The position numbers and the translations under genes were made by a program. Shown one piece after another: positions 7 to 24,000 of a stretch of DNA of 32,000 nt (positions are counted from its first letter, which is position 1; each line of letters opens with the position of its first letter). The DNA is from Puniceicoccales bacterium (lineage in GTDB: Bacteria; Verrucomicrobiota; Verrucomicrobiia; Opitutales; LL51), in NCBI GenBank assembly GCA_031283585.1, contig JAITBP010000003.1, positions 30,001-62,000 of the forward strand. Reading direction: 5' to 3'. The notes under the pieces are model-generated. The model ran no database searches, had not been told where the DNA came from, and saw nothing but the letters and a program-made list of their open reading frames with translations.

Positions 7-3000
7 ATGCAACCACTGGACATGGTCAGTGGCAATAACAATGCTGTTAAGATGGTAAACATGGTGGCCGGTGCCTATAATAGAATTATCGAAACATTGA
101 GGCTCTATACTAATAATAATGAGGTACTGGCATTGTATTTAGATGCGCTAATAACCTGTTCAAATAATCGCACGGAAGCTAATTTAGATTCATTAAAATC
201 CGCCTTTAATAATCTCGCCGATAAGTTTTTCGGTTCAGATGGAATTAAGAAAATGCTGAATGATTACAAGGATGGGTTATCTGGCATTGGTGCGGATAAA
301 CTAAATGCGGTCAAGGGCCTGATTGGTGATATGACCCTGGCGCTGGATAGCCACAAACAAGAGATGCTAGGGTTAATAATCGATGCTTTATATCCAAATT
401 GGGCAACGAATTCCGAGCAATATACAAATTCCAAGGCGTATATCTCTACTAACCCATTGTCATTATCAGGAGATGTTATCAATAGTATGCTGAACGAAAT
501 GGAGGTTAATCTGTGGCTGAGAGATGGAGATGAATATTCCTGGGATGAAATAATAAATGATGTGCTTACGGCCAACCCCTACCACGAACCGGTGGGTGTT
601 GTTAACAGAACCATGAAGGATGCGCTTGCTGATATCTATGCAAGGATTTCTGCGTGTTCATCGAATTGTAATTCGATGAATGGTTTTATTAACAACATAA
701 CCAATGCATCGCTGAGCAGTGCCTCGAGTGCCATAGAGAGCGCAATAACCAACATATCTTTATTTTCTCCAGTTTCACCGGTTACAAGCTATCCACCTGG
801 CTATTTAACTAACGATATCAAAAAAGATGCCTATATAGCCAACAGTCTTGCCGGGGTATGGAATGGAGCTTTAGCTGCGTGTACATCAGAAAATGGGTTA
901 ATTTCAGCTCTTGCTGCCTATAAAACTGCGTTGGATAATTATGCCGGCTCTTCTTCTACTGCTGACCTCGACGCGGTAATGGAAGCCTATAATACTCTAA
1001 GTGAGGTATTGTTAACCATAACTACGCAGATCAATGATTCGGTAATCCAGGAAGGATATGTCCAGAGCGAAGGCATAACCCTTAGCGCTGAGGATGTTTC
1101 AAAAGCAAACGAGATCATAGCCAGCTTTGGAAATGTATTCAGTCGTTTAAATAAGATGCACTTCATGTATATTTTACAAGAACGTGAAAAGGATGGCAGT
1201 TGGCTGAATTATGAAGGTATAGATCGGGTTATTAACATCATAAATAGTAGTACTATTTTCACGGATGTGGAAAAAGCTAGCCTGATTATTAAAGTTGGTG
1301 GCAAGGTTCCATGGACACCAACGACGTCATCGAGATCGCTAGATGAAATCTTTGACTATTGTATTCCGCCTATTGATTTATCCAGTCTTAATTTTGGTAG
1401 TAATTATGAATTTCTCCATATTTACTCTGACGACATCATAAAAGTGTTGGCTACTAATAGGGATCAAGTTGCCAGCAAATTGGGTGATTGGACTGGTTCG
1501 CTTCGGTCGGCATTGGACCATAGTATGTTTAGCCTTAATAGGGCTAGTGTGCCAACTGTTAGTAGGCTAATAAATGATATAACTTATCTAATTGATGGTG
1601 ATTATAGGACCGCATTGTTAGAGTATGCCGATGTCTATGGTACCGGTAATCCATCCGAGAATGAGAAGAGGCAAGCACTAGCCTCAGCAATAAATGGATT
1701 AATGACCCTGGTGGATAGATGTAAAAATGAAAGATCAATCGAGGATGAAGATATAATAAGGTACTATGTTGGTGCCGAAACCAATATCGATCTCTTCTAT
1801 TCAACAACATATGATATACTCAAAAGATTAGTAAAAGGGATGGTTGTGGCCCAAAATGCTGTAATAGTGCCTAACTGGTCTAAGGGTATCGAACCAGTTG
1901 TTGATAATATAAATGATAGTACTATTTTCACATATACAGAAAAAGTTGCCCTGATTACAGAACTTGGTGGTAAGGTTCCAGGGACATCAACGACGTCATC
2001 GAAGTCGCTAGCTGAAATTTTCATCGAGGTAATGCCCACTATTGACCGAACGGTATCAGAGATTAGAGGGACGATCCCAGGCATTGATGAGCTGGACAGT
2101 CAGAATCCCAGCGATGGGGCTGTTATTGATGCCATAAATTTACTCCTTGGAAATATTACAGCTGTCAAAGATCTTATTGAAGATATTATGAAGCTGCTGG
2201 CCAACGGTAAGAGTCTTGATACATTGGATGATAAATTTTATGAGCTTGGTAATCTATTGACATCTCAACAAGCCCTTGAGTATGCTAATGTGGGCGACCT
2301 TTCCAGTGATAGGAAAATAGGAGCGGTTTTTGTAGTAAACAAGATTGTAGAACTATTTAACCTGGCTGGTTCTGAAATAAAGTCTAGTGGGAGCATTAAT
2401 GATTACAAGGATGCATTGTTAGCCTATGCCCAGGTCTACGGCACCGGCGATTCATCCGAAAATGAGAAGAAGCAAGCCCTTGAATCGGCCATGGATGGAT
2501 TAAACTCGATGTTCGGCGACATTAGTTTTTATATCTTTGGTAGGAAGAGTGTTGACATTGGGATGGGTACCGGTAGCGAGGCTGTTTTTAATTGGGGTAA
2601 TTCGTCCATTAATGTAAATAATGATTATGGAAGAGCGAGAGATGCCGCAAAGAATATAGGTTTCATGTTCATGGATACATTCGGAAGGCTACCGATGGGG
2701 ATAGCCGTAGCCCAAAATGGTGCGATAATGCCAGACTGGTTTAAATCTGACGATTTAAAAAATGTACTAATCAATGCATTGAGAAGTACAGGCGACTATC
2801 TCAATTTGGGTCGCTTATTCGATTATTATAATAATGAAAAAGAATCCATTATAGAAGCTATCCTTGCCCAACGGCCAGTGCCCGCTAAAAATCAGGACCA
2901 GCCATCGGGCCCGCTGGGCGGTGGTAAGGTTGTGATGCCGGACTCGCTAGCTGATGTCTTTGATGATTGCATACCGGCTATTGATTTATCCAGTATATCA

Positions 3001-6000
3001 GGCCTTAGGGAAATGATAGGTAATGAGGAGATGTTTAATGAGCTGTCAGAATTGTTCACAGCTGTAGATAATGCCCTCGGAGAGGTTCGAAAATCAATGA
3101 CCAGCGGTCAGGATGAGAATGATTTAAAAGAGAAGATTAGCGATTTTAAAAGCCTTATCTCTCCTATTGATTCAAGTTCACTATTCTATGCGAAGATGAA
3201 TAGAATACAGGAATTGCTTTTAGGTCTTACTGAAAAGGAGCAATGGGCGGTAGCTGCGGTTTTTAATCCTCTTAACGATTTAGTTCAACAGCTATATCTT
3301 GATTATGATACCGAGTTCGACAATAGTTGCTATAGTTATAAGCACGAATTATTATATTATCTCAATAATCCAGATGACCCACATAGTGATGATCAAGTTA
3401 ACTATGAAATGGATATCCTAATTCAATGGATGAACTCAACGATAGAGCATATTGAAAGACATATCAACGATTATGATGGGTTTAATGATGATGAAAAAGA
3501 AATCGCACTCAAGTCCAGTGGCGTATACAAGGATATACTCCAAAGGTTTATTAAGGGAGTATTTTTGACCCAATATGATCTAATAATGCCCGATTGGGTT
3601 AACTCCACCGAATCAGTTGCTGATAATATAAATGATAGTACTATTTTCACAAATGAAGAAAAAGCTGCACTGATTGCGGGAATTGGTGGTAAGGTTGTGG
3701 ATACAGGCTCCCTGGCTGCAGTCTTTGCCAATTGTATTCCGGCTGCTAATTTATCCAGTCTTAATTTTGGAGAAGAGCATGGTGACCCAAAACAAGACCT
3801 TAAAAAGCTCAATGGTGCCTTTGATCGTATTATAGAATTGTTAGATACTAACAAAGATCAGTTTGCCAATAAATTAGATGGTAGAATTGATTCGTTCAAG
3901 AAAGCATTGAAGGGTACGGTACTTAGGGATCTTTATTTTGGCAATGTGATGGACAATGTGGCTAACGTAATTGCTGGTCCATATAAAGACGCATTGTTAG
4001 AGTACGCCAATGTCTATGGTACCGGTGACCCATCCGAGGATGAGAAGAAGCAAGCCGTTGAATCAGTACTATATGAATTAATGGACCTGTTGGATAGGTG
4101 TAAAAATGAAGATCCACATTTGTATGAAGACATAATCAAAAAGGAATTTGGTTATGGAGTTGATGCCAGACTCTTCTATTCAACGGCGTGTGATGTGGTC
4201 GAAAGATTTATAAAAGGTATAGTTGTGGCCCAAAATGCCGTAATAGTGCCTAACTGGACTAACTCTATCGGATCAGTCATTGATAATATAAATGATAGTC
4301 TTTATTTAAAAGAGTCGGAAAAAGCTGCCCTGATCACGGACCTTGGTGGTGGTATGGCGCCGAGGTCGCTGTCAAAGATCTTTGACGATAATTTCCCAGA
4401 GGTTGGCCTATTATCCGCCGTATCCAATCTTGAACCCATGCTGGGATCTGCTGCCACGGCTGCTACGAAAGAATTTCTCGCAAGGTTCGATGGTTCTCTG
4501 AAAGGTATGCTAGAAGCAATGTTTGATGGCAGTCAATCTGACGCTGATTTTAGTGCTAATCTCGCAGAGTTTAACAATGTACTTTTTGGATTATCTTCTT
4601 ACACATTTATGCTTTCCACCCCTATATATAATTTAATTAATGATAACTTTTCTGAAGATGAAGTAGCCAAAGATAAAGCAAAAGACATAATATATGAAAT
4701 TAAAAGTGCTTTCAATTACATGACTCCTAATAATTTTCTTATTAATAATTATAGGAATGCATTGTTAGCCTATGCCCAGGTCTATGGCAGCGGTGATCCC
4801 TCGGAGGAATCCAAGAGGCAAGCCTTTGAATCAGAGCTGAATATTATACTTAACAATATAACCTATACTAATAGGATTACCGACAATAGTACCGATTTCC
4901 GTCCTGGCAGTCTAACTAAATTTAGTCAAGATGAAATAGAACTCATACTCAATGTTCGCTATGCAATCACTGCCACGTTAACAAGATTTATGAGAAAAAT
5001 ACTTGTAGCCCAATACGATGTGCTAACTCCTGACTGGTTTAGATACGATAGATTAAAGCAGATCTTAAAAGATAAGATAGGCGGATTAGATTATAAAACT
5101 ATTTCTAATTATTATGACTACTATGAACAATATTATGAACGCATGCTGGGTGAGCCCTATAAGAGTAAAATCGCTGATGTTATAGCTGCTATTGATGCTC
5201 CTGTTTTTGCAGATCCGATGGCGGTGAGGTCGCTGGCAGAAACTTTTGACGATAATGTGCCAGAGATCGATCTAGATGCAAGATTTAACACATCGGTTTT
5301 TAAAGGCATACTGGGCTCATCTACTGCCACGGCCGCTCTGAAAAGAATGATAGTAGGGTTAAGCAATACCCTGGAAGGTGTCCGAGAATCGATGACTGCT
5401 GACAGTCAATCTGGTACGGACCTAAATGATAAACTCATAGACTTTTTGAAGGCAATTAGTAGAGAAAACTTTGGCACCATAAAAAATTTAGTTCCGTCCG
5501 AATTTTCAGTTAAGGCAGCTTATGCATTAGACTGGCTTGGAGATGCTTTTAATCATAATAGGTTGCTGCGCTTTACTGATAATATAGAGCAAACTGTAGA
5601 GCAAATTAAGACTAATATTGACAATTATACCTGGGCAACCAATGTTAAAGCTTATAGAGCTGCGTTGGTGGACTATGCCCAGGTCTACGGCAGCGGTGAC
5701 CCATCCGAGGAGACCAAGAAGCAAGCCTTTGAATCAAAGCTAGACTCGGTAATTGATGATATACTTGGCCCTAGAAATATCATAATAAATCAAGATATTA
5801 GTAACATGTATGATCGCCAAGGGGCCGAGCTATTCAGTGATACCGAAAAAATGGCCGTAAAAGATGTCTTTACCATAATCTGTGACATATTACAGAGACA
5901 CATAAGAAAGTTATATATATCACAATACGATGTGCTAATTCCAAACTGGATTGAATCCGACGAATTAAAACAGACATTGGCAGATGAGATATTAAAACGG

Positions 6001-9000
6001 GAATCACTATTTGATAAAAATAACCTCGACGCTATTATGGCTGTTGTCCAAAAGCCGGTGCCAAAATTTACGGACATGATAAGAGAGCTTATGCCATCGG
6101 ATAATCTGTATGACCTGTCCAATGACTTGGTTGATAGCGTTGATATCAAAAGTGATAGCCTGGCTCTTATCGATGAATTCGCCACCCCATTACTGAATAA
6201 TATCACTAAACTGAATTCTGTAATGGAACAGCTATGCAATGTCACCACGAGACAAGATATTAACGCCGTAAACATCAATATTGATCAACTTGACGACCTA
6301 TTAATTATCAACAATTCCATCTATGAAAAATACGCTGGTTATAAAAATGTGGTCAACGACCTTATCAATAAATATAACACGGTGCTTGGTAGTATCCAGT
6401 CCAGTGAACTGTCAGCCTACACAACGACTCTAAGCACCTACCTTAGTAATAAAAATGAAACCAATCTTACGGAGCTTAATAATGCATTCACTGGTATGAT
6501 TGAGGCGGTTAACGATATTATTCCGAGCCTAAATACAAGTCCGAGTGATTTGAGTAGCCTGGCTCCCGATGAAAGGAGTAGATATGACGAGGTCGTAAAT
6601 GTGCTGAAGGAAACGTTACGAAAGCTGGAGGCTGGTCTGTTCACATCGATTAACAAAGCAATATATGGTGATATCCGCTCGACCAATGAAGCCATCTGGG
6701 ATGGCATTACTGGCGAATTGGTTGAATATATTAAGAAATACATGGAGACTTCGCAGGTTGCGACGATCTCCGGTCAACTAACCATTAACAAAAGATTCAT
6801 ACCAAGGGATGGTAATATTTCCAGTCTTTGTACCATCGCGAGCAGTTTGACCACTCCTGTGGAGTTCACAACCCTTGAAAGCGAAAATCTAGAAGATGCA
6901 GGTAGTCTGACCATGAAAAAAGGAATGGCTTACTACACCGACATAGTACGAGAAATGGCAGATGGTCTTGTCGATGCCACAGGTAACATAATCAATGGTA
7001 TAGATAACGGTACAATTTTCACTAACATAATAGCAAAGCTAGGGGCCGACATTACAATTCAAAGCCTAAACGATGTGGATAGCTCATATGCGGACGCCAT
7101 TACGTTGCTAGGTGATAGCCTTAAAGCAATTAGCCCAGAATTATCTGCGTTAGATACAACCCTAGGTAACACATCGGGTAACCCTATCGAAATAAACAAT
7201 ACGGTGATAACGACCCTGAGAGCCATATATGATAAATTGCAACAACAGATACAGGGTGCTGGTTCTGCACCACAGATCAAAGCTGTAGCGGATTTATTGC
7301 AGAATATGTGCGATTTTATCAAAAGAGCACAGGTTGAAATGTCATTGATGATTCTTCAGCGGGCCTACACTTCCTGGGCGGTGGACGATAACGTTAGGCA
7401 GAGCTTTGTTGATAGTTTGAGTTCGGAACAAGAGCGTAGTCAAATAATCGACGAAGATTTCCTTAATAGTATTATAGCGAGGTTAGACAATTATTCGAAT
7501 CTAAGGTTAGTCGACATGTTTATGCCAGAAATAACTAACTATGGTGAAGGTTTTATAACTGGTACAAACAGCATGTCGCGGTGGGCTATGCCGATCCAGT
7601 CAGGCGATGTTAAAAACGGCACTTTGGGTAATATAAGGACCAATATAGCAACTCTTGGTTCGTTAATGTGGAACATCATATCTTCAGCCAATCAGAATGA
7701 TATTTTGGATGATATTTCCAGTATTGCTAGTCTACCGCGGTTGAATAGTTTAACGGATCCAGGAGATTTGTCTGCAGTAGCAGTCGGTGCTATGGATAAA
7801 ATCAACAAAGCCGTGGCTGCCTATAATGCTGTTATAGACAAGTTTAAAACGGATGTAGATGATACTTTTGTAAAAGCTCTAAAGGATTTCTATTCTAACA
7901 TGGCCGGTGATATACCCTATAAGGATTTGATTGATAAAATTAATGAAATTTTGGCTTCAACCGCCACTATTGGATCGGTAGATGGTGTGGCAGAGATCTT
8001 CAGGAGGTTTGGCTGTGGTATCGTGATGAATTATCTCCAGGCCAAATATCCTGACTGGAATTACAATGAAGATTCATTGGCTAAGGTACGTGAGGTTCTG
8101 TTTGATGCGCTTAATATAGAAAATGCCACAGAAGCCATAAAAGATTATGCCAAGCTGGCCAACGGTGAGAAGGACATAAATCTGAAAAGTGGCCCACATA
8201 TTATGGGAGATGCGTCCAAGATCAAGCGGCTGCTTTCAATTATAAAGCCATACATAGGTTATATGAAAATAACCGATTCGGTTTCTCGCCTGGAAATGCC
8301 AATTGGTAGTGGTAATTTTGTTACCGTCGATGACTCCAAAGGTTGGTACTATAAATCGCAAGATATAGAAGAGGATGTATATTACGATGTGAATCAAAAA
8401 AATAAATTTATAAACATCGGCGGTACTATGTATGAACTGCTGAACAATGGAGTTGCTGTTTCTTTGCAAGACAATGGGGATGTATTTCGTGTTTTTAGCC
8501 CGGAAGTAAGATATAATAGCACTAGGGAAATAGCTCAAGATGGTAACTATGTGCTGTGTGAAGATGGTGAAATTAGATTAGCCAGTAGCCTATGTTTTAA
8601 GGTAAGATCACCGGACGACAACATCGAATATAAGCCCTATAAAAAGCTTTCTGATGAGGCCATTCGAGATACAACGCCTGGCCAGTCAAAAAACAATGAA
8701 TATCCTGTTTATTACCAAGCAACCCACCGAGGGTATAACGCCGTTGATAAAGACAAGTACCCTGATATGAACGATCCGGCCAGGGAAGCTAAGGGTGATT
8801 ATTATATCTACTCGGAAGGTGTCTACATAAAGGCAGATGATCCATATCAACGGTATATTATGGATAAAGGTGTTTATTATAAAGTCATAGCCAATGGAGA
8901 GAATAATAGCTTGCTAATTGAAGATGGTTCTTTCCATGATGTAGACAGTAACACGGTATTTTTCTATTCTTCCAGCATTGGAGATAAAATATCTTTTGGA

Positions 9001-12000
9001 TCGATTTTGTATCAATGGACGAACGACACTGAATATGTGACCAAAAGCGAAGTAGTGGTGCCGGTGGAGTACGATACACATGTAAAATACAATGAACAGG
9101 ATAAGGATTTTACGATTAGCAGCAATAAGGTGTATATAAGAAGCGGTGACGATTACATCGAAATAGGTAATCCAAATGACTTATTTATTGTAGATTCTAA
9201 TGAAAAAGAAAGAAGAGTGGAGTTTCCTGGCCGTAAATATGTGGAGGAAGGAAATAACAACTATCTTTATGTTCCAAAAATTTCCGATAGATATACCTGT
9301 TTGGTGAAGAATGATACAGCTCAAGATAGTCAGGTCATAAAAGTTAGCGGTGGATTTATCAATCCAGCTAAGGCTGGTGGCAATTTAGTTTATGGTTCAC
9401 TTGAAAGTGCCACTGATGGTAACCATGTGCTTGGGTCTGATGGTGGCTATTATCCGTTGAGTTCTGTAAAAATAAGAGCAGGACTAGAAGAAGAAAATGA
9501 TATAGATTTCAATGGCGCCAAATATTGGTATAACGACAGAGAGCTTGCCATAACTAATTGGACAGCCTATGATTTGCAGAATGTATATGCCAAGGATTTG
9601 TATGTAAAAAGTGGTGATAATGTTTCTAATTCACCAATGATGACCGGAACCACGGTTACTCCGATTAGGGAAGAGAATGGCGAATATTTACTGGGTAGTA
9701 ATGGCGTATACTACAAAAAAAACGATACCTCGTTGGTCTGGTATGTAGATTACAATAGTAATAACCATAATCCGGCGAGTAATTCTATTTATGTTTTGGT
9801 TAACGGCACAGCTGAAAAAGCGGTAAATGTCGCTAATAGCAAGATCACCGAATACTGTAAATTTAACAGTGCTTTTTACGAAATAAAGACCGTTCCGGCT
9901 AAAGAACAAAAAATCACATCAAATAATAAGACTATTATCCAGGGCCAGAGATATATCGAGGTTAACGGCTCTATAGTGCAGGTTACCGAGGCCGATAGTA
10001 TATATGTAAGATCAGGCTCTGACGCAGCTGCGGAGTATCATAAAATATCAGGAACCGATGCTGTTCAATTGAAAGTCAAACTGGCAGGCGGTAATCTAGA
10101 GAGCTGGATGACCGGTGTGGTTGGTATAAAGGATGGAAAATCCATAAGTTTCTCGACAGCAGATGGATACTATAATTTCAAAGACGTTAATGTTCGGGAT
10201 GAAGATGGCGCATTACAAAAATTGTCGGCTCTCAAAATATCCATTGGTGGATTTAATTATGATGCTGTCGATGACCTGGGGAACAGCAGGGTATATGTGA
10301 AGAAGGATGGATTAGCCGAGACCATGGTGCAGTATCCTGGTGTGCAATATAACCCAAGAGAAAATGCATCTGGTACACACGTAAAATTTGATAATAGGTA
10401 CTACAATTTGACCAATGGCGAAATTGGCTTAAAAGTTCAATATAAAAACGATATCGGCACGTCTTCCTATTATGATTTGCCTAATAATGTACCGCCAACG
10501 GTTTACTACCTGGACGAAAACATACCTCCTCTAACAACGTCGGACCTCTATAACCAGAAAACCATCAATGCCACCTCGTTTAATCAGGGGGAAAAGTCCT
10601 ATACATCAACTATCGTCGGCAGAGAAGATGTCAGGGTGATGGAGGACGCTAAGTATTATAAACATAGCGATGGCCAATACTACAAAGTGAATGTGGCAAC
10701 GGCAACTATTAGCAGTGATGTAGCGGCTGGTGATAAATATTATGTAAAAGATAATGTATCTTTCAAGATTGACTATAGAAACATAGATAGCCTATATAGT
10801 GTCAATAACTTTGCTGTTGATGGTAAATACTATAGAGATGATGACGGGAAGTTATACGAACTAAAAACAGCAACCATGGCCATTGGCTCAACCATAAAGG
10901 TTGGTGACAAATATATCACAAAAGGTACTGAAAATATTAAAGCTACGGACGAAACTAAATTTGGCAATGTCACTAGTCTTATTGATAGCAAGTATTACAA
11001 GCATACGGATGGTAAGCTGTACGAAGTGAGAATAGCAACGGCGGATGATATAGCATCACCGGAGGCCCAGGGTCTAAATCTAAGCGTTGGCAGTAAATAT
11101 ATTGTAAAAAAGAACGATATAATGGATGAATACATCCCGGTCAGTGACGTGACCAGTCTGTGCAATGTTGAATTTTCAGCCGTAAGAGTCGGAGAGAGAT
11201 ACTATGATCTGTCAAAATGTAAGCTTTATATAGGAAAGGCCACTCCGGGTGTCAGTGAGTTGGCCTACACCCAATACAAAGGAACCCCTGAGTTCGAAGG
11301 TTCAGGAAATGACATATTGTATGACAATATATATGTGGAATCCAATGGAAAATATACGAAATTACTCGATAGAGATGAGAACACTGGGCAGGTAAAATAT
11401 TATATGATGAGTGATAGGGATCCAAGTGTTACGCCCATGGCTACATCTGATTCCAACACATTTATATTTGGATCCGATGATGCCTATCATCGTGCTTCGG
11501 ATATCAAGGTAAAGATTGGCGATAAATATTACCTATATAAGGGGCTTTTTGCTGCTATTCCGAGTAGTAGTATGAGCGACTATAAAAAGATCAATTCGCC
11601 GATGGAAAGATTTTCATTCGTGCAAAATACCGAAGATGAGAATTTCATTGGTGAAGATAATTTTGTGAAAGATGTGGACGGCATGTATCACAATAGTGGT
11701 GTGTTTATAAAGGACGGTAGTAATAATGAGGTTGAGATATCAACTGGCAATGAATTTTCTTTCATAGCTAATAATGGTAAGAAGGTTCCAAATCCTGGTA
11801 ATTTTGTTGCGGAGCGCCAAGCCAAAGGTGGTGACTTTATAAAGGTAGGTGATTCATCATATTACAGGACCGATGAATTAAAAGTCAATGTAGGATCTTC
11901 TAAGGAAAAGATCATAGGGTTTTATGCAATAGATTCGCAAGGAACCAAATCCAGTGTAAATGATGTACTGAGCAGATACAAAATAGGTAACCCAGTCGGG

Positions 12001-15000
12001 GCAGCAGGATTATTGAAAGGAGAAAATGGCGCATATTATGGCTCAGCAAGCCTGGTAAAAATCAAGGCCAGTGGTGCCCTGTATGGCCAGGATGCCAATG
12101 GCGAATATGTCCGTGCCGAAGAACAAGGTTATTTCAAACTTAGCGATGTAGATGGTGACCCAAATTTCACCAGATTACAGGATGTGTATTATAAATCGGA
12201 TAACGGAAACCCTCCGACCTATTCGGTGGTTGGTGTTACCAGTGGCGAGGTTTATGTATTTGGAACCATGTACAAGTTCATAAACGTAGGTGAAGGAACT
12301 GATAAAATCCATTATAAGTCGGAAGGTGATTTTTCGAGATTAGATGATGATCTTTATGTAGAAATTTCTGGCGCTAAGGTCAAAGGCGAAGATGGTGTGC
12401 TTTATAGCCCAGACGATATATATGTCGCTGGCAAGAAGTTCGAATACAGGAGCATTGGTGATGTTAAGGTTATTGCTGAAAAGTCAACCGGTGTTGAAGC
12501 AGATAAAGTGTTCGTAAAATCTTTGTTCGATAGTCTGGATGACCTGAAGAAAATTACCGTTGATAACCCTGAAATAACCAAGGTTGATAAATTTAGTGAT
12601 GTGATTGATAAATTGCAGGGATATCTGACATCGTTATCTGGCGATTTGTCGGCCTATTCAAAGGAAATTGCCTATTATAATGGGGCCAAAACTATCATTG
12701 ACGATACCGTTGAAAGGAACAAGGATTTCATATCCATTGGTGGGGACAGACTTGCCGATGAATTGGATAAGTTGCTCGATAGGTTCGATGGCCTTGGATC
12801 TGATGATATTGGTGATGTGGAGTGGCGTAAGAAATATAGCGGCGAATTCGAGAGCTATGTTAGAAATATAAGAAACGAGATAAGTAACTACAAAATATCG
12901 TCCAGTGAAAGAAATGTCTATATGCGCAGACTGGCCGAAGCGAACGATATAATTTCCTATGCCTTTGGTAATGCCATTACGCCGAGTGAGTTCTTTGGGA
13001 ATAATCTCGTGGACGTGGTTGAAAGTCTTGTAAAGACTATCAAGTCTACCAGTGGTGCCAGTACAGATGAAAATGAAAGGATTAAGCTAGCTTATCAGAT
13101 GTTCTTTGACTGTGCTAACAAACTTGACACTTTGACTAGGAGCTGGGAGTTGCAGGATAAGGATCTTGGCCGGGGCACGGAATTACTGGCGCTAACTACC
13201 AAAGTAAAAGAGATCTCTAGCACATTAAGCCAGGTAAGCTTCGTGTCTTTCAGGAACGTCAATATCCAGCAGGATGCCTATGGTAAGATGATGATGTTGG
13301 AGTATGTTTTTGGAAATTATGGCAAGGTTGGTGATGAGATGCAATTCCTGGAAGATAGTGAGCAAGTGAAGAATGACAAGAAAATCTACGTCCAATTCAG
13401 GAATATGGACGGGAGTGCTATAGCTATCAATGATAACTCCTATGGTAATAAACTGCTGTATGTGGAAGATAAGTCCAGTGGCATACCATTAAAATTTTAC
13501 TACAGATATAACTTTTCCGAGTCAAAGGTTGAGAAGTGTGTCGCTAATGCGTCTGGCAAGCCATCAAACTACTGGATTGATGCCAGGAGCAATACCGATG
13601 CCAAACCCTGGGATGTGAACAGTTTGTACTTTAGAGATGCGCTGAGGCATACGGACATGGCCAAGGTGTTAGAGGGTTATTTCATTAAAAATACCAAGGT
13701 GCTTGGTGAGAAGGATCCGGTGACCAATTTCCTAAGAGAAGTTAAATGGATGATGGACGTACCGATCTACCAGGTAAACGAAAAGCTGGGATTTTTTACG
13801 ATGAATGGTATATCCGAGCCGAAGATATTGGAGTTTGGCACTGGCAAGACCGCTGCCATGGAGTATGAGCCGGCCACAACCACTGATCCATCCCAAAATA
13901 GGCCGAATCCGATAATAGATGAGATTAATAATCTTATACCAAGGGAATCCATTGCCTATCCGACGGAGCTGGAAGCTTGTTTGATGGCGGTTGACAAGAG
14001 CGAGGGTTTACTTGGTAAATTGGTATCCTATATGGTCTCCAATGACGATGCTTCTGATCTGAAGATCGTTCCAAGTGTAAACACAATGAATAATATAAGT
14101 ACTAACTATCTTTCTGGAACTGGAGAGGCATTCAACCCTTATATTTATGCTATGCCGAGCATATCGCCACTTGATCAGTACCCGGTAACCATAGCCACAG
14201 AGTTTGATGGTGCGATAGATAGTTTTAGAGAGGATACAAACACAGGCTTCAATCATGTTTATGAACCAATGAGGTTATATACAGCTGGTGTTGCTAATGG
14301 AGTTGGTGGATGGACGATCAAAGATCATACTAGTAACCAGGATGGGTACGGCAATGAGAGTGATTGGGGTGAACCTGGTGGATGTCATATTGGTGGTCAA
14401 GAATCTCAAAGACATATCAAACTGAATAATATATGGCAATCTGGTGCAGATAACAACAATGTTAAACGTGATTTAACCAGATTAAAAGACCATATATCCG
14501 GGGCGAATGTATCAATAAGTAGTGATGCGAGGTTAGAAAGAATTGAACAGGTGCTTGCCTACCTTAATAAGAATAAGGATTGTGATTTCAATTACAATGT
14601 TTACACCCATACAACTGGAACTGGTTCTAATTATTGGGGTTGGCGAGATAAAGGTGCTATAGAGGGTGGTGCTGGCCAAGAGGGATATGGTACTAGTGAT
14701 ACGAATAACTCTCACTGGCATAAAGGGACTATAATATCCATGCAAAGAGGCTATAAGGAAAACATGCATAATGCCTATGGAAATGCCCATGGAAACAGGT
14801 ACTTATCGAAATTAAAAGATTTGCTTGGGTTATCGAACAGCCAAGCTACTAATTTAGCTAAATTGCTGGAAGAAATCGATGCACCGGGCATTGAGGCCAC
14901 CATCAGAAACGCGAAAATCACCGGAACTGCTGTCAAAGCAGCCGACGACGACGCCAAAGCCGCCAGAGCCGTTGCCGACGTCTTAGCCAATATCGACGCC

Positions 15001-18000
15001 GCCTCCTCCGCCGCCGTCAGAGCCGCCAGAGACGCCGCCACCGCCGCTGAAACTGCCGCCGCCGCCAACGCCATTGCCTCCTCCGCCGAAGCCGAAGATG
15101 CCGAAGCCGCCACCGCCGCCTACACCGCTGCCAAAGACGAAGCCAGAATTGCTGCCGACGCCGCCAAAGCCGCTGCCGACGCCGCCAAAGCCGCTGCCAA
15201 CGCCGCCGCCAACGCCGTCAACGCTGGAACTGTCAGAGGCGTCACCGAAGCCATCAACGCCTGCTCTTTCATCTTCAGCAGAGCCATGGCCGTAGTCGCC
15301 TCCACCGCCACCACCGCCAACCCCGCCACCACCGCCGCCGCCGCCGCCACCGCCGCCGCCACCGCCGCCGCCAACGTCGCCGAAGCCGAAGCCAAATACG
15401 GCGTAGTCGGAGGCGCTGCTGCCAGAGCCGAAGCCGACGCAAAAACCGCCGAAACTGCCGCTGCCGAAGCCAAAGCCGAAGCCGCTGTTGTCGACATTAC
15501 CACTGAAGATATCATTGCCTATAAGGCTGCCGACGTCGCCAAAGAATCCAAAGCCGAAGCCGCTGCTGATGCTGCCACCGCTGCCGCCGAAGCCGCCAGA
15601 TACGCTGCTGACGCCGCCAAAGAAGCCGTCGTCAAGGTCAACGTCTTCAGGACCGACATCACCAGCGACACCGCTATAATAACCGCCGCCACCAACGCCG
15701 CCACCGCTGCTGAAACTGCCGCCGCCGCCGCTGAAACTGCCGCTAACAACGTCTCAGGCTTCCCAGCCGTCGCCGAAGCCACCAGAATCGCCGCCGCCAA
15801 AGCCAGGGCCGTTGCCAATGTCGTCAAAAACATCGCCTCCAGCCACATAGACAGAATTAATGTCGCCAACGGAATCATCGACGGCTACGCCACCGAATCC
15901 GAAACCGCTGCTGCCAGAGCCAAAGCCGCTGTCACAGCCGACATCAGAGCCGCCCTCCAGAAATATAATTCATCTTTATATGGATTAAAGGAAAAATACG
16001 AAAGTTGGCATGCAGAGCGCGAAGCCAAAAAACCTGCTGCCCAGGAGGAGATTGCCAAGATTAGCGCTATTATGACGGCACTGGGCAATGCGAGTGCCTG
16101 GGAAGCTGAGACTACATCGACTAATTCCTTGGTACTTATGCTTGGCAACCTGGCTGGCGATGTCAGTGCCAATAAAACGACCAAGAATAAATCCGGTGAC
16201 GGAGGCTTTACAAAAGAGATAAACAGCGTATGGGAGGTGAGCGGTGCCCTGAAGAATTTGTTGGATAAGGATAGTACATTTGCCAATTTTATCGGATATG
16301 TAAAGGAATTTAGTAATGCAAAAACACCAGATATGAGGGGTTTTGCCGCTAATGAAATCGTAAAGCTCGAAACAGAGTTAATTGGGGACAGTGTGAGTCA
16401 CGGGATAATTGGAGATGCGATAAACGCTGCCTTAAATGCTAAAAATAATGCAAAGGGCAGTGGGACGGCAAGTTTTACCGAAAATATCTATAAAGGGCTA
16501 TCTAATTTAAAGAAAAGAGTAACGGACATCATAGATTCAGCAGGCCAACAGAAACTGATTGTCCAGTCAAAAGTCTTCTGTAATTTCCTGCAGACCATGG
16601 AAGCCTCCTATCTGAACTGGCGAACCAATGAACCCGAACGTGAAAAATTAATCAATATCCTGGATTCATTATGTGATAGTAATGGTAAGCTCAATGAATC
16701 CAGTGGGTTTAAGTTACTGGAAGATGAATTCAAAGTAGTAAAGAATTTCATAGTTAATTATAAGATGGTTGACAGCCTGATAAATTTCACTTCCGCCGGA
16801 GTGCCCGAGGATGTTCTGAAAAATTTACAGGTCAACTATCCCAACTGGGCAAAGAGTTCTTCCATGAAAAATCAGCTGCTGGAAAAGATAAGGACAGCTT
16901 CATATGGTGATTTAGGTTTAAAATTAACTGAAAACATTAATGAAATCAAAAATAATCTAATCAGCTTGATTAATGGCTATCCGACAAATGATCTGGATGT
17001 TATTCCAAATAGACCCGGGGTTTATACGGTTGGCGATACCATCGCGAATTTTAAGTCAATTCCTGTGTATGGAACCAAACTAGCTGCATTCACAATGATC
17101 GAAGAACCAACCATCTTTGATACGCCACCACGGGGTGCCATCGGATCCTTTGAATGGAAAACGGTGGAATCGATTGTCGATGCCATTGGCATAACCGGGT
17201 CGGATACCATGTTGGAGTACCTAAATCGTCAATTTACCTATCTAGCCGAGAATGGCATAGATTCCGGCCAGGCGAACAACAATGGTCTCGAAAACCTAGG
17301 AAAGGTCCTAAATGAATTGCACGAAAGAATCAAAACCTATGCGGCCAGGGGAAGTAATGGATCCAGTAATGCCGGCTCAGATAAAATGATAGCCAATGGG
17401 CTTATAAAGTGGTATAACGCGATTGTAGAGTCCACCGCAGGTTATATAAAAAAGAGCCTTCAATTAAGCATAAACGATAATAATGGCAATTCTTCCAAGT
17501 GGGATTATCCGGTTGGATGGGAAAATGAAAGTCTCTTGAGGAATATAGAGATGAATAATAACGGGACCATAGCCTTTGCATCGGTAAGTAATTTGGCGAA
17601 TACCACTGCCAATAGGATACTTAATCTGAAGGATCACTATGGCACCGGCAACAACAACATCATATCTGGCAGCATAATCACCAATCTAAAGAGCTATCAG
17701 ACGTCTTTTTTGAATCTTTTAAATCAGTACACCGAGATGGCCGAAAGCAAAAAGCAAAACTACGACTCTACGGTTATTAGGTACTATATATCAGTATTAA
17801 AAGAAGAAATAAAGAAATTCATAGACTTCACCATAACTACCGATTCCAATGGGCAAGAAACTATAACCTACTCAAAAGGAAATAATTTGCCTATTGAAAT
17901 GAAGGATATGTATGTGGACTATGTTAGCCAACTTACCGAAATAGATAAAATTTTCACCTCAAAGATGGAGGTTAGTCAATCTGAGTTATTCTATAATTGG

Positions 18001-21000
18001 TTCACAAGGTTGGAACTCCTCTATCCGGATTGGAGGGTCAATTCAAAGAGCCGGGAAATAGTTTTAAATCAACTCGATCTATTTGCTAATACGAAGGTGG
18101 CATTTACCCTGCCGCGAACCATTGCTGACAGTAAGCTTGATGTTGCCAAAGAAGACATTCTGCTGAAGGATGGCACAAATGTCGTTAATTTATCAAGTAA
18201 ACTTGCCGATATCAATGCTAATATTGTAAATGTTTATGCAGACATAGAGAAAGTATTTTTTGAAGACACATTGGATACCAGCGATCTAGCTGGGATTATA
18301 ACGAATTTAGGCGATATAATAACAAGTATTGGTAACGCTAAAGATAAAGCAACATCAACAGCATATGGCTATCTCAATGAAGTTATAACCTTAGGTGAAT
18401 TTAGATCCATCGATGATCAGAATGCCTGTAAGACAATGATTGATGAGATGTCCAGTGCTATCAGTAGTACAATGTTGCTCATGAAGGTAATAAAGAATTA
18501 TGCATCTAATTCTAATTTATCATCTAATTTGAATGACTCCGACAAGGAAGATCTATGTACAATGCTTGGTGTTCCATTCATAAAGGACGCTCCTTTGGAT
18601 AACATCCGAAGTATCATATTAGATAATCTTTCAAAATTTGCTACTGACAATGCAGCCTTTGTTAAAGCCATTACTCCAGTTAGGAATGCAATTTTGTCAC
18701 AAAAGAGTTTATGTACCGGTGGTACATTGCAAATGATGTTGTCCAGAGGTGGCAACTATTTTTCAAAAGACCTGATTGAGCATATAAAAGGCACTCCTAA
18801 TGATGGATTAAGCATCAAGAGTTACATTGGACAGTATAACACAAAGACTGATGAGGCGAATGTTGACCCTGACAAAAAGGCATTGTCACTTTCTGCTGTA
18901 TATGGAGTGACCGGTGATATAAATTCGGATCAGGTAGCCGTAATAAACCTTATGGAAAATATGCGTGCAGCTGTCTATAAACAATATAACGATGTTATTG
19001 CCAAAAGACCGAAACTGCTAGCAACACAAATTTCCGGTGATGCAGCCAAATTGGATACCAGGACATTGGCCAGTAGCCCAGAGTTGTTTAATTTGTATTA
19101 TGAAGCGATGCTGGAATTTGAAAGAAATTCGTCTATAGTTGTCCTAAATTTTATAAAAAAGAAAGCATCCGTACTTGGATTAGACAGCACCTACAGTAAT
19201 ATATTGGACAAAATTATAAAAGGTACATACGCCACTGGCAGTAATAAGATTTCAACATTGAGCGAACTTTTTTCATATAAAGGCGCTGATGTTGAATTGA
19301 ATGATATTATTAAGTGCCTTAATGGTTTGGCTGGTAAAACAATAAATTTAGGTAAAGACACAAAAGATCCATTCCTGGATGTAATAACCAAATATAAAGA
19401 ATTATTCGTCGATAAAGGTTCAATAATGAACAATGTTGAAACCTATATGGTTCAACACGCTTCATGGGAATTTTTCACGAAAGAGATAGATAGGTTATTT
19501 TCTAAGTATAAAAATTGGAGAATTGATCAGGATGATGAAGATAAACTGCGTTCAGAATTAACTGTTATGCAAAATGCGGTCTATTACCATAAGATTAAGG
19601 GTGATACATGGGAAGTGCCATCTAAGCCTATAGCTTCATTAAACAATATGGATTATGAATGTGATAATAACGCGTTTGTAACTAGATCCGCATCTTCGAT
19701 CAGGGTGGAAGGTATATCTCCATTTGGTGATATGCCAGCCACCGGTGAAGATGGGGCCGAAGCCGGAGGTGAAAAAGGTATAACAATGGCCGAGCATATA
19801 GAAAATCTTCTATCTGAAATCCGGGATTACAATGCGAATAGTGATCCAAAGACCGTATATGATATAAGGAAGGGTGAGCTGGACTCGGTCATTAAGGCAA
19901 TTTTGGGTGGTGATGGAACCAATAGTAGTGCTGTCTTAGATACCAATAAGACAAATTTACTCATAGGTAATGGCTTGATTAAAGCAGACAATAGCATGTT
20001 ACTGTTAATAAAACAACTGGAAGATTTGGTTTCCGTTTGGAATGTAAGGGATACGACCGTTAATAAGCAGGCTATTGTTGAACTCAATAAAAACAAAAGT
20101 CCGGATGAGCCGGGTAAGCGCATAGTTACGGATACGGTGCTGGCATTGATCGATGATCTAAAGATGAGCTATACACACGGCGAAGCTTATAATTTCTGCT
20201 CCGTATTTAATGATAGGCTCAGCATGGCAGAATATATATTTTCTATCATGGATGGGCAGGTATTGGATTTAACCTGGCACAATAGAGATACATCGAAAAG
20301 TGACATGATGCTATTAAAAACCACTGGCGTTTACACGTTTAAAGACGCCCAGAATAACATTTATGCATGCTCAATGTATAATGGAGAAACGAAGGTGATA
20401 GAGCTTGCTTCTTTAGAAAACCCAGACCCTAGTGTTATAGCAGCCTATGTTAGTAATTTGACCAAGACGTCGTTTTATGATGCAGAAAACCTCCAGGGTA
20501 TATTTTTTAAGATTGATGCAGGTGGTAATATAACAAACACAAGATTGGCCATCACCGTTGGTGGGGAAACCTACACATCTACCCATGTTGGGCTGGTGGA
20601 TTCCCGTGGCGATTCATTAACCACCGATGATGAGGGATTTTTCATAAATAAAGATGGTGAACGGATTGTTATGGATAACCAGTCAGTTAATGCCAGTGAC
20701 GTGGCATACAAGATAGATATGGCATCGGGGAAAATTATTGCCGTTGAATATGATGCACAGTCCGAGTCATCAAAAATTGGCTCCTATAAGGTGATAGAAT
20801 CCTATGGCCCTAGATTCAATTACGTAGCAAAAGAGTTCTCTCCATCGGCGCGATATTTGGTAGAAGAGAGTGTGCGGCAGTCATTCCTAAGCGAAATCAT
20901 GACAATTGGCTCAGAATTGGAACAAAGACTCAATATTTGGAAGGCCGGTATTAGTTCCATTGATGCTGAGTATACATCATCGGCATTGAGTGCTGTAAGT

Positions 21001-24000
21001 GAATTTACCGCAATGTTTTCGAGGCTAAGCGATAGATTAGCAACCCATGATGTCAGGATGTACAACGAAAAATTGAATTTTGGCGATGAGGAGGTCATGA
21101 TTTCCAACGTAAATATGGCTTTAAAAAACCTCAGTGGCGGTAGTGATCTGCAGAATTTCGCTGGGCTTGCTGAGAAAGCTAGGCAGTTATATGATGCAGC
21201 CCATAATCTTGCTAAAGCCAATGCCAATGGTATGATAAATGAGATAAAGACACTCGGTCCAATTTATGAGACGGCAAAAAGAGAGTATGAAAATGCCAAG
21301 AAAAATACTTCATCTGGCTATGGAAATTATGAATTGTACGTGGAGTCACTGAAAAAATTATTAGATGAAGCCGAAATAGATCTGAAGTACAATATGTCAG
21401 TCCAGCTGGAAAAGGCCGAAAAAGGTGAATTGGTGTCTTCCTATGTGTTTTCCAGCGAAAAATATAAGGCTGCCAAGGAAGTCCTTTCCATTGTAAAGTC
21501 CGTGGATAAAGTAACCAGTGAACTTGATGGTTGCATAGAATCGATGGCTCAAAGAAAAGATTTTCTGTCACTGCTGGATGTAATAGAAAATGGAACATCG
21601 GAGTATTCCCAGGAGGCGATACTGCCATTTACAAAGGCTTGGATTATTGAAAAGTCATCTAAAATGAGGACCTACCAGGGGTGGCGTGGCGATTCCATGG
21701 ACGCTTCGCTGTATAAATCTGCCCTAGCAACTATCAGAGAGGCTACATATTTTGCTAATTCTGAAGAGATCAAATTAATTTCAACCGAATCGCTAAATGA
21801 GTACTTGGTGGCCATGGATTCTGCCCTGGATGATTACGTCAAAGAAATGAAAGACTATGAGCTATATGATGGGTTGCTCAATAATGTGTACGGCTTAGAT
21901 GTATATAACAATGGTAGGGTTCGTGAAATAGTTGGCATTGGAATAAATACAATTATAGCAAACAATGTCGATTGGGTGTTTTCCCAGGCTGGCAAAGAAG
22001 CATTTTTGAAAGAACTGGCAGACTATAGCAAATCGTTGGACCTGATCATAGAATCCTATGATACCGGTGGCATGCTAAATGGTAAGATGAATGCCGCGGT
22101 ATTGAATAAAATAAAGGCACTGCGTAAGTATATAGGAACAGAAGGATCTAACACAAAGAATGACTATATTGGCAGCGTTAATTTGTTCGAGGCCTATGAT
22201 AGTAGTAACTATTCGAAGCTTCAACAGATGTATAAAAGACAGGCAACCACGATAAAGAAAATAGTTAGTGATTATAAGGCTAATAAAATTTCCCTTGAGG
22301 ATTATATGGCAAAAATCGATGAATTACCTTTGGAAGGTGGCCCGTTGGATGATTATGTGACCTCGCTAAAAGAGTTTCTTCAATACTCAAAAGCTTTGCA
22401 AGATTATCAGGTTTCTCTGCTACAGTTACAACCCAAATATTATGTTTACGACAAAAAGCAATCATCCTGGATTACATTGGATGAAAGCGGCATGAACGAG
22501 AAACAGATAAAGGATGCTGGTGGTAAATTTATTAGATTGGTCAAAGGCTACGATGGAGGTGGCAACCCGATCTATCTTGAAAATTATAGTCTAACAGATA
22601 GCATCACCAAACCTGTATTTGTAAGTGCCACTGCCATATGGCATGGAGATTACGAGAGCTATGGTGTTGTAATACAATTACTGGCTACATTGTACGAAAA
22701 ATTTACAACCCAAAAGCAATTACTTGCTGACATCATAAAACAGGTAGAGGAAAATAATGAAAAAATCAAAGAGGCGAATATGATACTGCAAGATATAAAT
22801 AAAGTCCAGGCATCAGCCGCTAAGGCCGGCGAGGATGCAAAGGTAGCCATACCGGCAAACGTGGTGTTGTATTTTGGTAAAAATAAAATTAAGGCACCGA
22901 CGAACCTGTTTTCCAATGACGAAGAACTGGAGAGGTATGATAATTCCAGTTTCAATAAAAGGATGGAATATTTGTCATCCAGTGGTACAGATGCATCGCT
23001 CTTTTTATCCTACATAACCCAGGGACAATTGAAGGTGAAGGATGGCATGAGCCTGATGTTAAGCGATTTGACATCCACCGATTTGCTAGAATTGGGGACT
23101 ATGAAGGAAATGTATGACAAGGTCAGTGGCATCGATAATAAATTCGGAGATGTGGCCAAGTCAATTCAGTCTAAGAATTCTGGCAGAAATATCGCCATAT
23201 TTGCAGCCTTTGCCGCGCCATTTGCGTTACCATTTTTATTGGCTGGACCTCTTGGGATGGCAATTCTTGGTGGTGCGATTCTTGGCCCAGCACTTGGTCT
23301 ATCCATGACAGGTAATCCGGAGAAACTATCCGGTGCAAAGTATTTAACTGCTGGGACAGGAGACAAGTTATTGAAAGCCTATTGGCGGATAAGGACCGAG
23401 CTGGAAGGTAGCTCAACATTACCCAAGGGAGTGATGGATAATTATCTCCAGGGAATGTTTAATGTCATGAACGAGGATGTCCGGGGCTATGCCTTTCCGT
23501 CAAATGATATAACGCCGAATAGAACGAAGAACGATAGTGCAACCGGAGATAATATCAATGGATTTGAAACGGACAGCTATCCTCCTATTACCAATGACTG
23601 GGGAGGCACAGGTCATTATAGCTACGTATCAACCGATACAGCCAGAGCAGGTGGACTTAGCGACGATGAATATAAAAATAACCAAGACGCTGCTAAGATG
23701 ATAGAAGCCATGGAATTGCTAACTCACCAAAAGTTTTTTCACGGCGATGCTGGCGCTCATAAGGAAAATTTCACTGCACCGGACTATGACTATAATGCGT
23801 TTATCATGATGTATAAGTTGGAAGCCATGGTGGATATGTTTGGCGTAGAAGCAACTAATATTGCTGTTAAATATTTAATAGGAGAAAAAAATCGTGCCCA
23901 GACAGTCCTGGCCTTGGATTCTTTGGCCGATGCATCACGGGATACTGGTAGTGGCGATGGGAAAAAGCCCCGGGTATACACCCAGGAAGAAATAACGAAA

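Follow-up and report, generated by a model that had tools for sequence, protein, structure and literature searches.

How does a kilobase of GC-rich DNA, with a codon usage of its own, come to lie in frame inside an AT-rich gene? The question is raised by a 32,000-nucleotide (nt) stretch of a Puniceicoccales bacterium (GenBank assembly GCA_031283585.1, contig JAITBP010000003.1, positions 30,001 to 62,000 of the forward strand), which we call the window. The gene is a giant open reading frame (ORF) for 8117 amino acids (aa), and the island within it is rich in Ala. We think it probable that the island arose in place, by amplification of GCC-rich units in an indel-prone hinge of the protein, followed by diversification of the peptide and partial decay of the synonymous sites, and that it is tolerated, or mildly useful, as a helical spacer. 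The gene and the island are as follows.

7..24360, forward strand: giant ORF hosting the island, 8117 aa; an orphan with N-terminal repeats, one hydrophobic region and a conserved C-terminal domain.
14896..15957, forward strand: codon-regime island proper; aa 4964-5317 of the giant ORF, 354 codons, about 1.06 kb, 40% Ala.

An earlier note, made from the sequence alone, had marked the segment 14881-15960 as a sharp GC-rich, C-skewed island in an AT-rich gene. This description held. The segment is in frame and encodes aa 4959-5318 of the giant ORF, with 4958 aa upstream and 2799 aa downstream, in agreement with the ~4,950 and ~2,800 aa that had been estimated. In 300-nt windows, GC content was 0.57-0.70 inside the island and 0.38-0.46 in the flanks. 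GC skew, in sliding windows, reversed its sign, with values of -0.15 to -0.32 within the island and +0.1 to +0.3 outside. The island was the only GC peak more than 2.5 standard deviations above the mean in the 32-kb window, and no comparable GC or codon tract was found in the fetched loci of relatives. In a per-codon conformity track, the borders were sharp to 1-2 codons and fell at nt ~14893-14896 and at 15957, so that the codon regime proper lies slightly inside the 14881-15960 segment. The simple rule "NNC, or NNA for Lys, Glu and Arg" described 80% of the island codons and 30% of those in the rest of the gene. Ala made up 146 of the 360 residues of the segment (40.6%); there were only 2 Leu and 3 Pro, and the near absence of these two residues had been noted correctly.

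The codons of the 360-codon segment were strongly biased. Ala was encoded by GCC 116 times, by GCT 26 times, by GCA 3 times and by GCG once. Similar dominance was seen for GAC (18 of 21 Asp codons), ACC (25 of 33 Thr), GTC (21 of 26 Val), AGA (13 of 15 Arg), AAA (15 of 17 Lys) and GAA (22 of 23 Glu). In the remainder of the giant gene, GCC accounted for 34% of the Ala codons and GAT for 76% of the Asp codons. The dominance of GCC, GAC, ACC, GTC, AGA and AAA asserted in the earlier note was therefore confirmed, but not its statement that GCG and GCA never occur. At the third codon position, 65% of the bases were C (C3) and 2.5% were G (G3), the latter being scarce across every codon family (9 of 360). 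For pyrimidine-ending pairs, the C:T ratio was 45:7 in the island and 629:1626 elsewhere (p = 2e-18). For the purine-ending pairs of Lys, Glu and Arg, the A:G ratio was 50:6 in the island and 801:575 elsewhere (p = 5e-7).

This anomaly is far beyond chance and is unexplained by the richness in Ala alone. When the amino acids of the island were kept fixed and codons were drawn at random from the usage in the rest of the gene, 90±7.8 C3 codons were expected (simulated maximum, 119) and 235 were observed. For G3, 57±6.5 were expected (simulated minimum, 35) and 9 were observed. The simulated GC content was 0.56 versus an observed 0.645; thus about half of the GC excess comes from the Ala content and about half from synonymous choice. 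In windows of 100 codons along the gene, the chi-square value rose to 128 in the island, and it did not exceed ~14 in windows that do not overlap it; the seven other genes examined showed no such deviation either. The sequence of this genome inspected was the 32-kb window plus ~3 kb, about 35 kb in total. The preference for C3 or, with Lys, Glu and Arg, for A at the third position (the C3/A3 regime) was seen neither in the rest of the giant gene nor in six neighbouring genes. It might have been expected that Ala-rich tracts everywhere in this organism use GCC, which would make the island an ordinary consequence of composition. In Ala-rich contexts outside the island, however, GCC served for 18 of 48 Ala codons in the same gene and for 9 of 29 in neighbouring genes.

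We compared the giant gene with its orthologues in related loci, which were located through the type III secretion chaperone gene at 24372..24893. Two orthologues, L002 and L004, came from Puniceicoccales-like metagenome bins. The L002 orthologue (at least 5467 aa, ending at a contig edge) was 44% identical to aa 4370-4970 of the window protein and 58% identical to aa 5283-8117. L004 was 59% identical from aa 5308 to the end, and its contig begins ~55 codons upstream of the hinge. In local alignments, both run directly from NAYGNAY or WYGKSY to ..LK.KYD.Y.., skipping ~400 residues of the window protein. The skipped residues consist of the 354-codon island and ~41 residues with ordinary codons ahead of it. 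Two features lie in this upstream part.

14770..14895, forward strand: AT-rich "leader" of the lineage-specific segment, GNRYLSKLKDLLGLSNSQATNLAKLLEEIDAPGIE; aa 4922-4963, with ordinary codons, not in L002 or L004.
14770..14795, forward strand: 12-nt tandem AATGCCYATGGA in 2.2 copies, encoding NAYGNAHGN, at the upstream edge of the lineage-specific segment; its counterpart in L002 is NAYGNAY.

By these alignments, the island segment appears to be present in one lineage and absent from related ones. L002 and L004 differ from each other at the hinge too, which suggests that it is an indel hot spot. Searches of GTDB genomes and JGI metagenome contigs found no closer relatives. Synonymous sites should have reached saturation between proteins that are 58% identical, and yet the island still follows its codon rule at 80% of its codons. 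This points to a gain, and to one much younger than the split from these orthologues.

Traces of repetition remain inside the island. Its repeats are listed here, together with a short direct repeat that brackets it.

15151..15207, forward strand: 21-nt (7-codon) tandem array GCTGCCGACGCCGCCAAAGCC; 2.7 copies with 97% matches in Tandem Repeats Finder (TRF), encoding AADAAKA twice and then AANAAAN.
15297..15382, forward strand: GCC/ACC triplet array with periods of 3, 12 and 18; C3 90-100%, the purest part of the island.
15697..15743, forward strand: 21-nt tandem array; 2.2 copies with 92% matches, encoding ATAAETA / AAAAETA.
15022..15066, forward strand: first partner of a long-range repeat, AARDAATAAETAAAA; 40 of 45 nt shared with 15685-15729, including the minor codons GCT and ACT.
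15685..15729, forward strand: second partner of the long-range repeat, AATNAATAAETAAAA; pairs with 15022-15066.
14896..14907, forward strand: left copy of a 12-nt direct repeat, GCCACCATCAGA (A-T-I-R), at the island start.
15937..15948, forward strand: right copy of the 12-nt direct repeat, GCCGACATCAGA (A-D-I-R), near the island end.

The arrays detected by TRF in the island had periods of 9, 12 and 21 nt, and the spacing of all repeats was a multiple of 3. The exact 21-nt duplication at 15151-15192 reported in the earlier note was recovered. The peptide TAAETAAAA, said there to recur three times, occurs twice in exact form; the shorter AETAA occurs four times. The GCC/ACC array at 15297..15382 is presumably the youngest part of the island. 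Four-codon words were repeated 39 times, compared with 11.9±3.8 after shuffling of codons. When only synonymous codons were permuted, so that the peptide stayed as it was, the expected number was 23.2±4.7, and 39 was reached in 4 of 2000 permutations. This result indicates that the repeated peptide words share a DNA history. Rare codons recur in the same surroundings: four of the seven occurrences of the minor codon ACT are inside GAA-ACT-GCC, and segments near the two ends of the island, beginning at 14953 and 15790, both carry the rare GCC-GTT-GCC. The imperfect 12-nt pattern GCCRMCATCAGA has just two matches in the 32-kb window, 1041 nt (347 codons) apart. Such a bracketing repeat could represent the outermost units of an array that has grown, or a microhomology-mediated duplication, although it was spotted post hoc and should be weighed with caution.

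The synonymous sites carry a further mark. At the four-fold sites of the island there were 178 C, 37 T, 12 A and 2 G. By comparison with the rest of the gene, T was overrepresented among the non-C sites (chi-square 24.3, p = 5e-6). This excess fits a decay by transitions from an all-C state toward AT-rich usage.

The course of events that we favour would start from a small C3-rich stretch around GCC-ACC-ATC-AGA-GCC-GCC. Short GCC-rich, in-frame units of 9, 12 and 21 nt (3, 4 and 7 codons) would have been amplified by replication slippage or unequal recombination at an indel-prone hinge of a giant protein tied to a type III secretion operon. Amplification would have copied the codons of the founders, that is, GCC, ACC, GTC, GAC, AAC and ATC together with GAA, AAA and AGA, so that the apparently foreign regime would be a founder effect and not the usage of another genome. 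Later, the peptide would have been diversified by point substitutions at the first and second positions of its codons. Synonymous decay, mainly by C-to-T transitions, would so far have covered roughly between a quarter and a third of the distance to the AT-rich equilibrium. The product would be Ala-rich amphipathic helices of ~25-115 aa each, adding length to the linker that joins the N-terminal ~4,920 aa, which are variable, to the C-terminal ~2,800 aa, which are better conserved. The segment may simply be tolerated, or it may be mildly useful as a spacer.

The idea that the island was born by expansion of a GCC-rich repeat, followed by divergence, had been raised in the earlier note. The residual in-frame arrays and the reuse of codons in repeated words support it. 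Several observations weigh against it, however. Most of the island is not recognisably repetitive (for example, VRGVTEAINACSFIFSRAMAVV and VKVNVFRTDITSDTAII), and yet the C3/A3 rule is kept there. The long-range repeat score was ~4 standard deviations above the mean of codon shuffles, but it was exceeded by 1 of 60 shuffles. If the ancestor was GCC-like, positions 1 and 2 have changed at 37-47% of the codons, compared with ~20% for the synonymous third position. To account for this faster change, one would have to invoke positive selection, ongoing homogenisation or founder units that were themselves complex. Descent from GCC does not explain the A-ending codons of Lys, Glu and Arg, which need a founder effect or a C-to-A bias. 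As for the direction of the event, L002 and L004 share 68% identity with each other but 58% with the window protein, so parsimony does not distinguish a gain in the window lineage from a single loss in the common ancestor of L002 and L004. The site has also seen more than one event: the stretch of ~41 aa with ordinary codons beside the island is missing from the orthologues as well.

Insertion of pre-formed DNA could also place such an island in the gene. The segment would have entered in frame, either from the same genome (where gene conversion or illegitimate recombination could have copied it from a paralogous gene rich in Ala) or from a different organism, for instance a host, and its codons would be those of the source. 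The sharpness of the compositional borders suits an insertion, as does the 12-nt direct repeat at both ends, which is like a target-site or microhomology duplication. The absence of the segment from the orthologues and the persistence of the C3/A3 regime in the non-repetitive parts are likewise expected from it, and the ~35 kb inspected leave room for a donor within the genome. Searches for a donor were, however, negative. The island and its immediate surroundings (aa 4922-5325) had no match at E<=1e-3 among 1.84 billion representative proteins (phmmer). The island had no match among PDB sequences or in a phage collection, and only three weak, compositional matches in a plasmid collection. No island-like sequence was found elsewhere in the window or in the fetched loci, at the protein or the DNA level, and an exact 27-nt word of the island had no match in JGI metagenome contigs. 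There were no terminal inverted repeats, and no integrase or transposase gene was present in the 32-kb window. A high-GC donor would not be expected to use AGA, AAA and GAA, and the internal tandem arrays show that at least part of the island grew in place. We thus consider the insertion of pre-formed DNA unlikely, and the foreign origin offered as a second possibility in the earlier note gained no support from these searches.

Selection might instead keep the codons as they are, either because they are cognates of tRNAs with G34 or U34, allowing smooth translation of 146 Ala in 360 codons, or because a G-poor mRNA avoids self-folding and R-loops. In line with this, 97% of the Ala codons, 32 of 33 Thr codons and 24 of 26 Val codons in the island end in C or T, and 50 of 56 Lys, Glu and Arg codons end in A, which is the pattern expected of tRNAs with G34 or U34 only. 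G is avoided at the third position in every codon family, and the island has no inverted repeats. In infA, taken as a proxy for a highly expressed gene, no such preference was seen (18 T versus 3 C and 10 G versus 7 A at third positions), although this is one gene only. The regime is likewise lacking in the rest of the giant gene and in the six neighbouring genes, and Ala-rich contexts elsewhere are not biased to GCC. It would be hard to justify selection fixing synonymous codons over 1 kb of a 24-kb gene in an organism whose codon bias is otherwise weak, and the T excess among the non-C four-fold sites also fits simple mutational decay. We regard maintenance by selection as distinctly improbable. 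An artefact of assembly, by a chimeric join or by a collapsed or mis-extended repeat in a metagenome contig, was also considered. The source is a metagenome assembly, and short-read assemblies break in this gene: the contig of L004 starts just upstream of the hinge, and an independent short-read assembly (L001, Logan SRR14710909), which matched the window at 99.98% over 9061 nt (22940..32000), stops at nt 22940, 1.4 kb inside the giant gene. No independent assembly spans the island, and this counts against in-place amplification too. On the other side, the 8117-codon ORF reads through both junctions in frame and without a stop, the orthologues are collinear with the window on either flank, each junction falls within a predicted helix, and the internal repeats are diverged and do not form a collapsed perfect array. 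The hinge differs between L002 and L004 as well, so that a change of length there is natural. An artefact is therefore very improbable.

A diversity-generating retroelement target was also tried as a candidate and rejected: neither the window nor the fetched loci contained a second copy, and there was no reverse transcriptase among the ORFs of the 32 kb inspected.

What the island encodes is best described, on the basis of structure prediction and periodicity, as several Ala-rich amphipathic helices. A single-sequence AlphaFold model was all-helical with breaks and had ~8 helices in the island, at low confidence (predicted local distance difference test (pLDDT) score, 56.7). Gly and Pro split the segment, and the longest run free of both is 114 aa. 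Non-Ala residues and charged residues recur with a period of 3.5-3.8 residues (z = 4-5); no heptad period was found for Val, Ile, Leu, Phe, Met and Tyr. Charged residues number 76 of 360 (21%). By these data, the segment does not look like the single long alpha-helix or coiled-coil rod proposed in the earlier note. An ER/K single alpha-helix was rejected because of the composition, with 21% charged residues and 40.6% Ala. An antifreeze-like helix was rejected as well: the segment has no 11-residue period of Thr and is interrupted by Gly and Pro, and the only signal was at period 22 (z = 3.7).

At the level of nucleic acid, effects of a G-rich template strand on transcription or replication had been suggested. 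No quadruplex motif with runs of three or more G was present on either strand of the island, and the RNA is rich in C, an orientation in which R-loops form less readily. Rfam and ARAGORN detected no RNA family or tRNA. Over the island, on the reverse strand (window 14775..16286), there are four ORFs of 112-133 aa, rich in Ala, Ser, Leu and Val, and one Arg/Trp-rich ORF of 55 aa. These antisense ORFs are most likely by-products of a stop-poor, GC-rich sequence.

Codon-homogeneous low-complexity regions, or cryptically simple sequences, are regarded as unstable products of polymerase slippage (PMC10124876), and their origin from replication slippage has been reviewed (PMC10124876, PMC3523016). 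The island resembles them in its strong amino-acid bias, its one dominant codon, its in-frame arrays of short units, its presence or absence between lineages and its place in a poorly conserved linker. It differs in being unusually long for a bacterial gene, at 354 codons, in a peptide that has already diversified greatly, with 59% of the codons non-Ala, and in a bias that extends across all codon families (C3 where the ending is a pyrimidine and A3 where it is a purine) and is not confined to a single codon. The island most likely belongs with this known process, as a clean example and not as a new kind of element.

The Ala-rich type I antifreeze proteins of fish have been proposed to derive from a (GCC)n repeat (PMC9122973). 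The island shares with these proteins an Ala-rich helical character, Thr as a common second residue, lineage-specific Ala codons, and a proposed origin of new coding sequence from a GC-rich, Ala-coding repeat. Unlike them, it lies within a giant bacterial protein and is not a small secreted peptide, and it has no link with ice binding. A bolder account would make the island a bacterial counterpart of the birth of these antifreeze proteins. A helical module of ~350 residues would have been born very recently and de novo by runaway amplification of GCC-type units, followed by positive selection, with changes at codon positions 1 and 2 about twice as frequent as those at synonymous third positions. 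Its length would still differ from strain to strain, and it would adjust the reach or the spacing of a giant protein associated with type III secretion in an uncultured verrucomicrobial (Puniceicoccales-like) bacterium. We consider this account quite doubtful.

Ala-rich helical spacers are known from domain II of TolA and from the A-region of streptococcal antigen I/II, where they set the length of stalks and vary in length among strains. The Ala/Lys/Glu/Asp-rich, heptad-like units of the island, such as AADAAKA, recall them. The island differs from both in its helices broken by Gly and Pro, and it showed no similarity to them in searches of Pfam, NCBIfam and PDB. We know of no comparable anomaly of the codon regime in either domain.

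If the expansion in situ is true, the island would offer an unusually clean bacterial snapshot of ~350 new, structured-looking codons arising inside an existing gene. Its origin would still be legible in the codons, through the C3/A3 founders and the C-to-T decay, and would provide a natural clock for amelioration. It would also imply that a gene can contain a sharp compositional island that is not foreign DNA.

The island marks an indel-prone hinge in a previously undescribed protein of 8,117 aa, encoded beside a type III secretion translocator chaperone gene. The genes of this neighbourhood, and those matching the end of the giant gene in more distant relatives, are as follows.

24372..24893, forward strand: type III secretion translocator chaperone of the LcrH/SycD family (TIGR02552, 105.2 bits versus a cut-off of 104.8), 11 nt downstream of the giant ORF.
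24964..26115, forward strand: putative SseC-like translocator, 383 aa; weak Pfam match (E = 0.003), below the cut-off.
L005 8..562 and L006 2..538: pre-chaperone genes of distant relatives that match the C-terminus of the giant protein; possibly truncated by the contig end.

The nearest relatives of the chaperone (75% identity) are annotated as from a "Puniceicoccales bacterium" metagenome-assembled genome, in the Verrucomicrobiota. The SseC-like gene is homologous to the post-chaperone genes in L002, L005 and L007, and is followed further downstream by mnmE, infA, an ABC permease gene and a sigma-54 activator gene. The same gene order was found in four related metagenome loci; in two more distant chaperone homologues (P0004 and P0005) the contigs stop just upstream of the chaperone. 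An LcrH/SycD chaperone gene followed by an SseC-like gene is the arrangement of type III secretion translocator operons (lcrH/sycD, then a yopB/sseC-type gene). The operon differs from them in its pre-chaperone gene, which is an orphan of 8117 aa and matches no known translocator, tip or needle family. From this operon context, we infer that the host gene, conserved but so far undescribed, provides a component or a substrate of a type III secretion locus in this verrucomicrobial lineage. Its product may be a giant substrate of type III secretion, or a translocon-associated protein, of a kind not described before. The host gene and its operon are arguably more novel than the island, and the giant protein may be biologically more interesting.

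Database searches placed the giant protein in no family. It had no Pfam or NCBIfam match, apart from a single sub-threshold match to SseB at E = 0.003. No match was found for aa 4300-6300 or for the C-terminal 1317 aa in a word-indexed set of 5.8 billion proteins, for the C-terminal 1000 aa or an alignment of three orthologues in GTDB genomes, or for the same alignment in JGI metagenome contigs. The last 184 aa (aa 7934-8117, window 23806..24357) are 43% identical (E = 2e-45) to the product of a pre-chaperone gene in a more distant relative, and the conserved C-terminus reads ...NETT..ATQ.LK....NIR. This C-terminus did not match needle, tip or translocator families. A needle-like or filament-like C-terminus (...TLRQIYSNIR) was considered and rejected, since nothing was found in Pfam at E<=10. 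A profile search against PDB gave one chance-level match (Ran-binding protein 3, E = 0.53), and hhalign against an approximate sequence of PrgI gave none. An AlphaFold model of the last 338 aa had a pLDDT of 36.6 and was unusable.

The N-terminal part of the giant protein carries six to seven diverged internal repeats of ~260 aa (24-60% identity; window ~1200..6000, aa ~400-2000), each with the motif Q[NY]xx[IL]xP[ND]W (at aa 616, 903, 1409, 1669 and 1973). The only strongly hydrophobic stretch of the protein, aa 7726-7770 (window ~23182..23316), is variable in sequence and length among the three orthologues, and the surrounding C-terminal 918 aa are 71-73% identical.

The SseC-like protein has 556 aa in L002 (10543..12213) compared with 383 aa in the window, and the L002 protein carries a helical insertion of ~200 aa whose GC content, 0.395, is ordinary. 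Large helical indels thus seem common in this operon, with the aberrant codon regime seen only in the island of the window.

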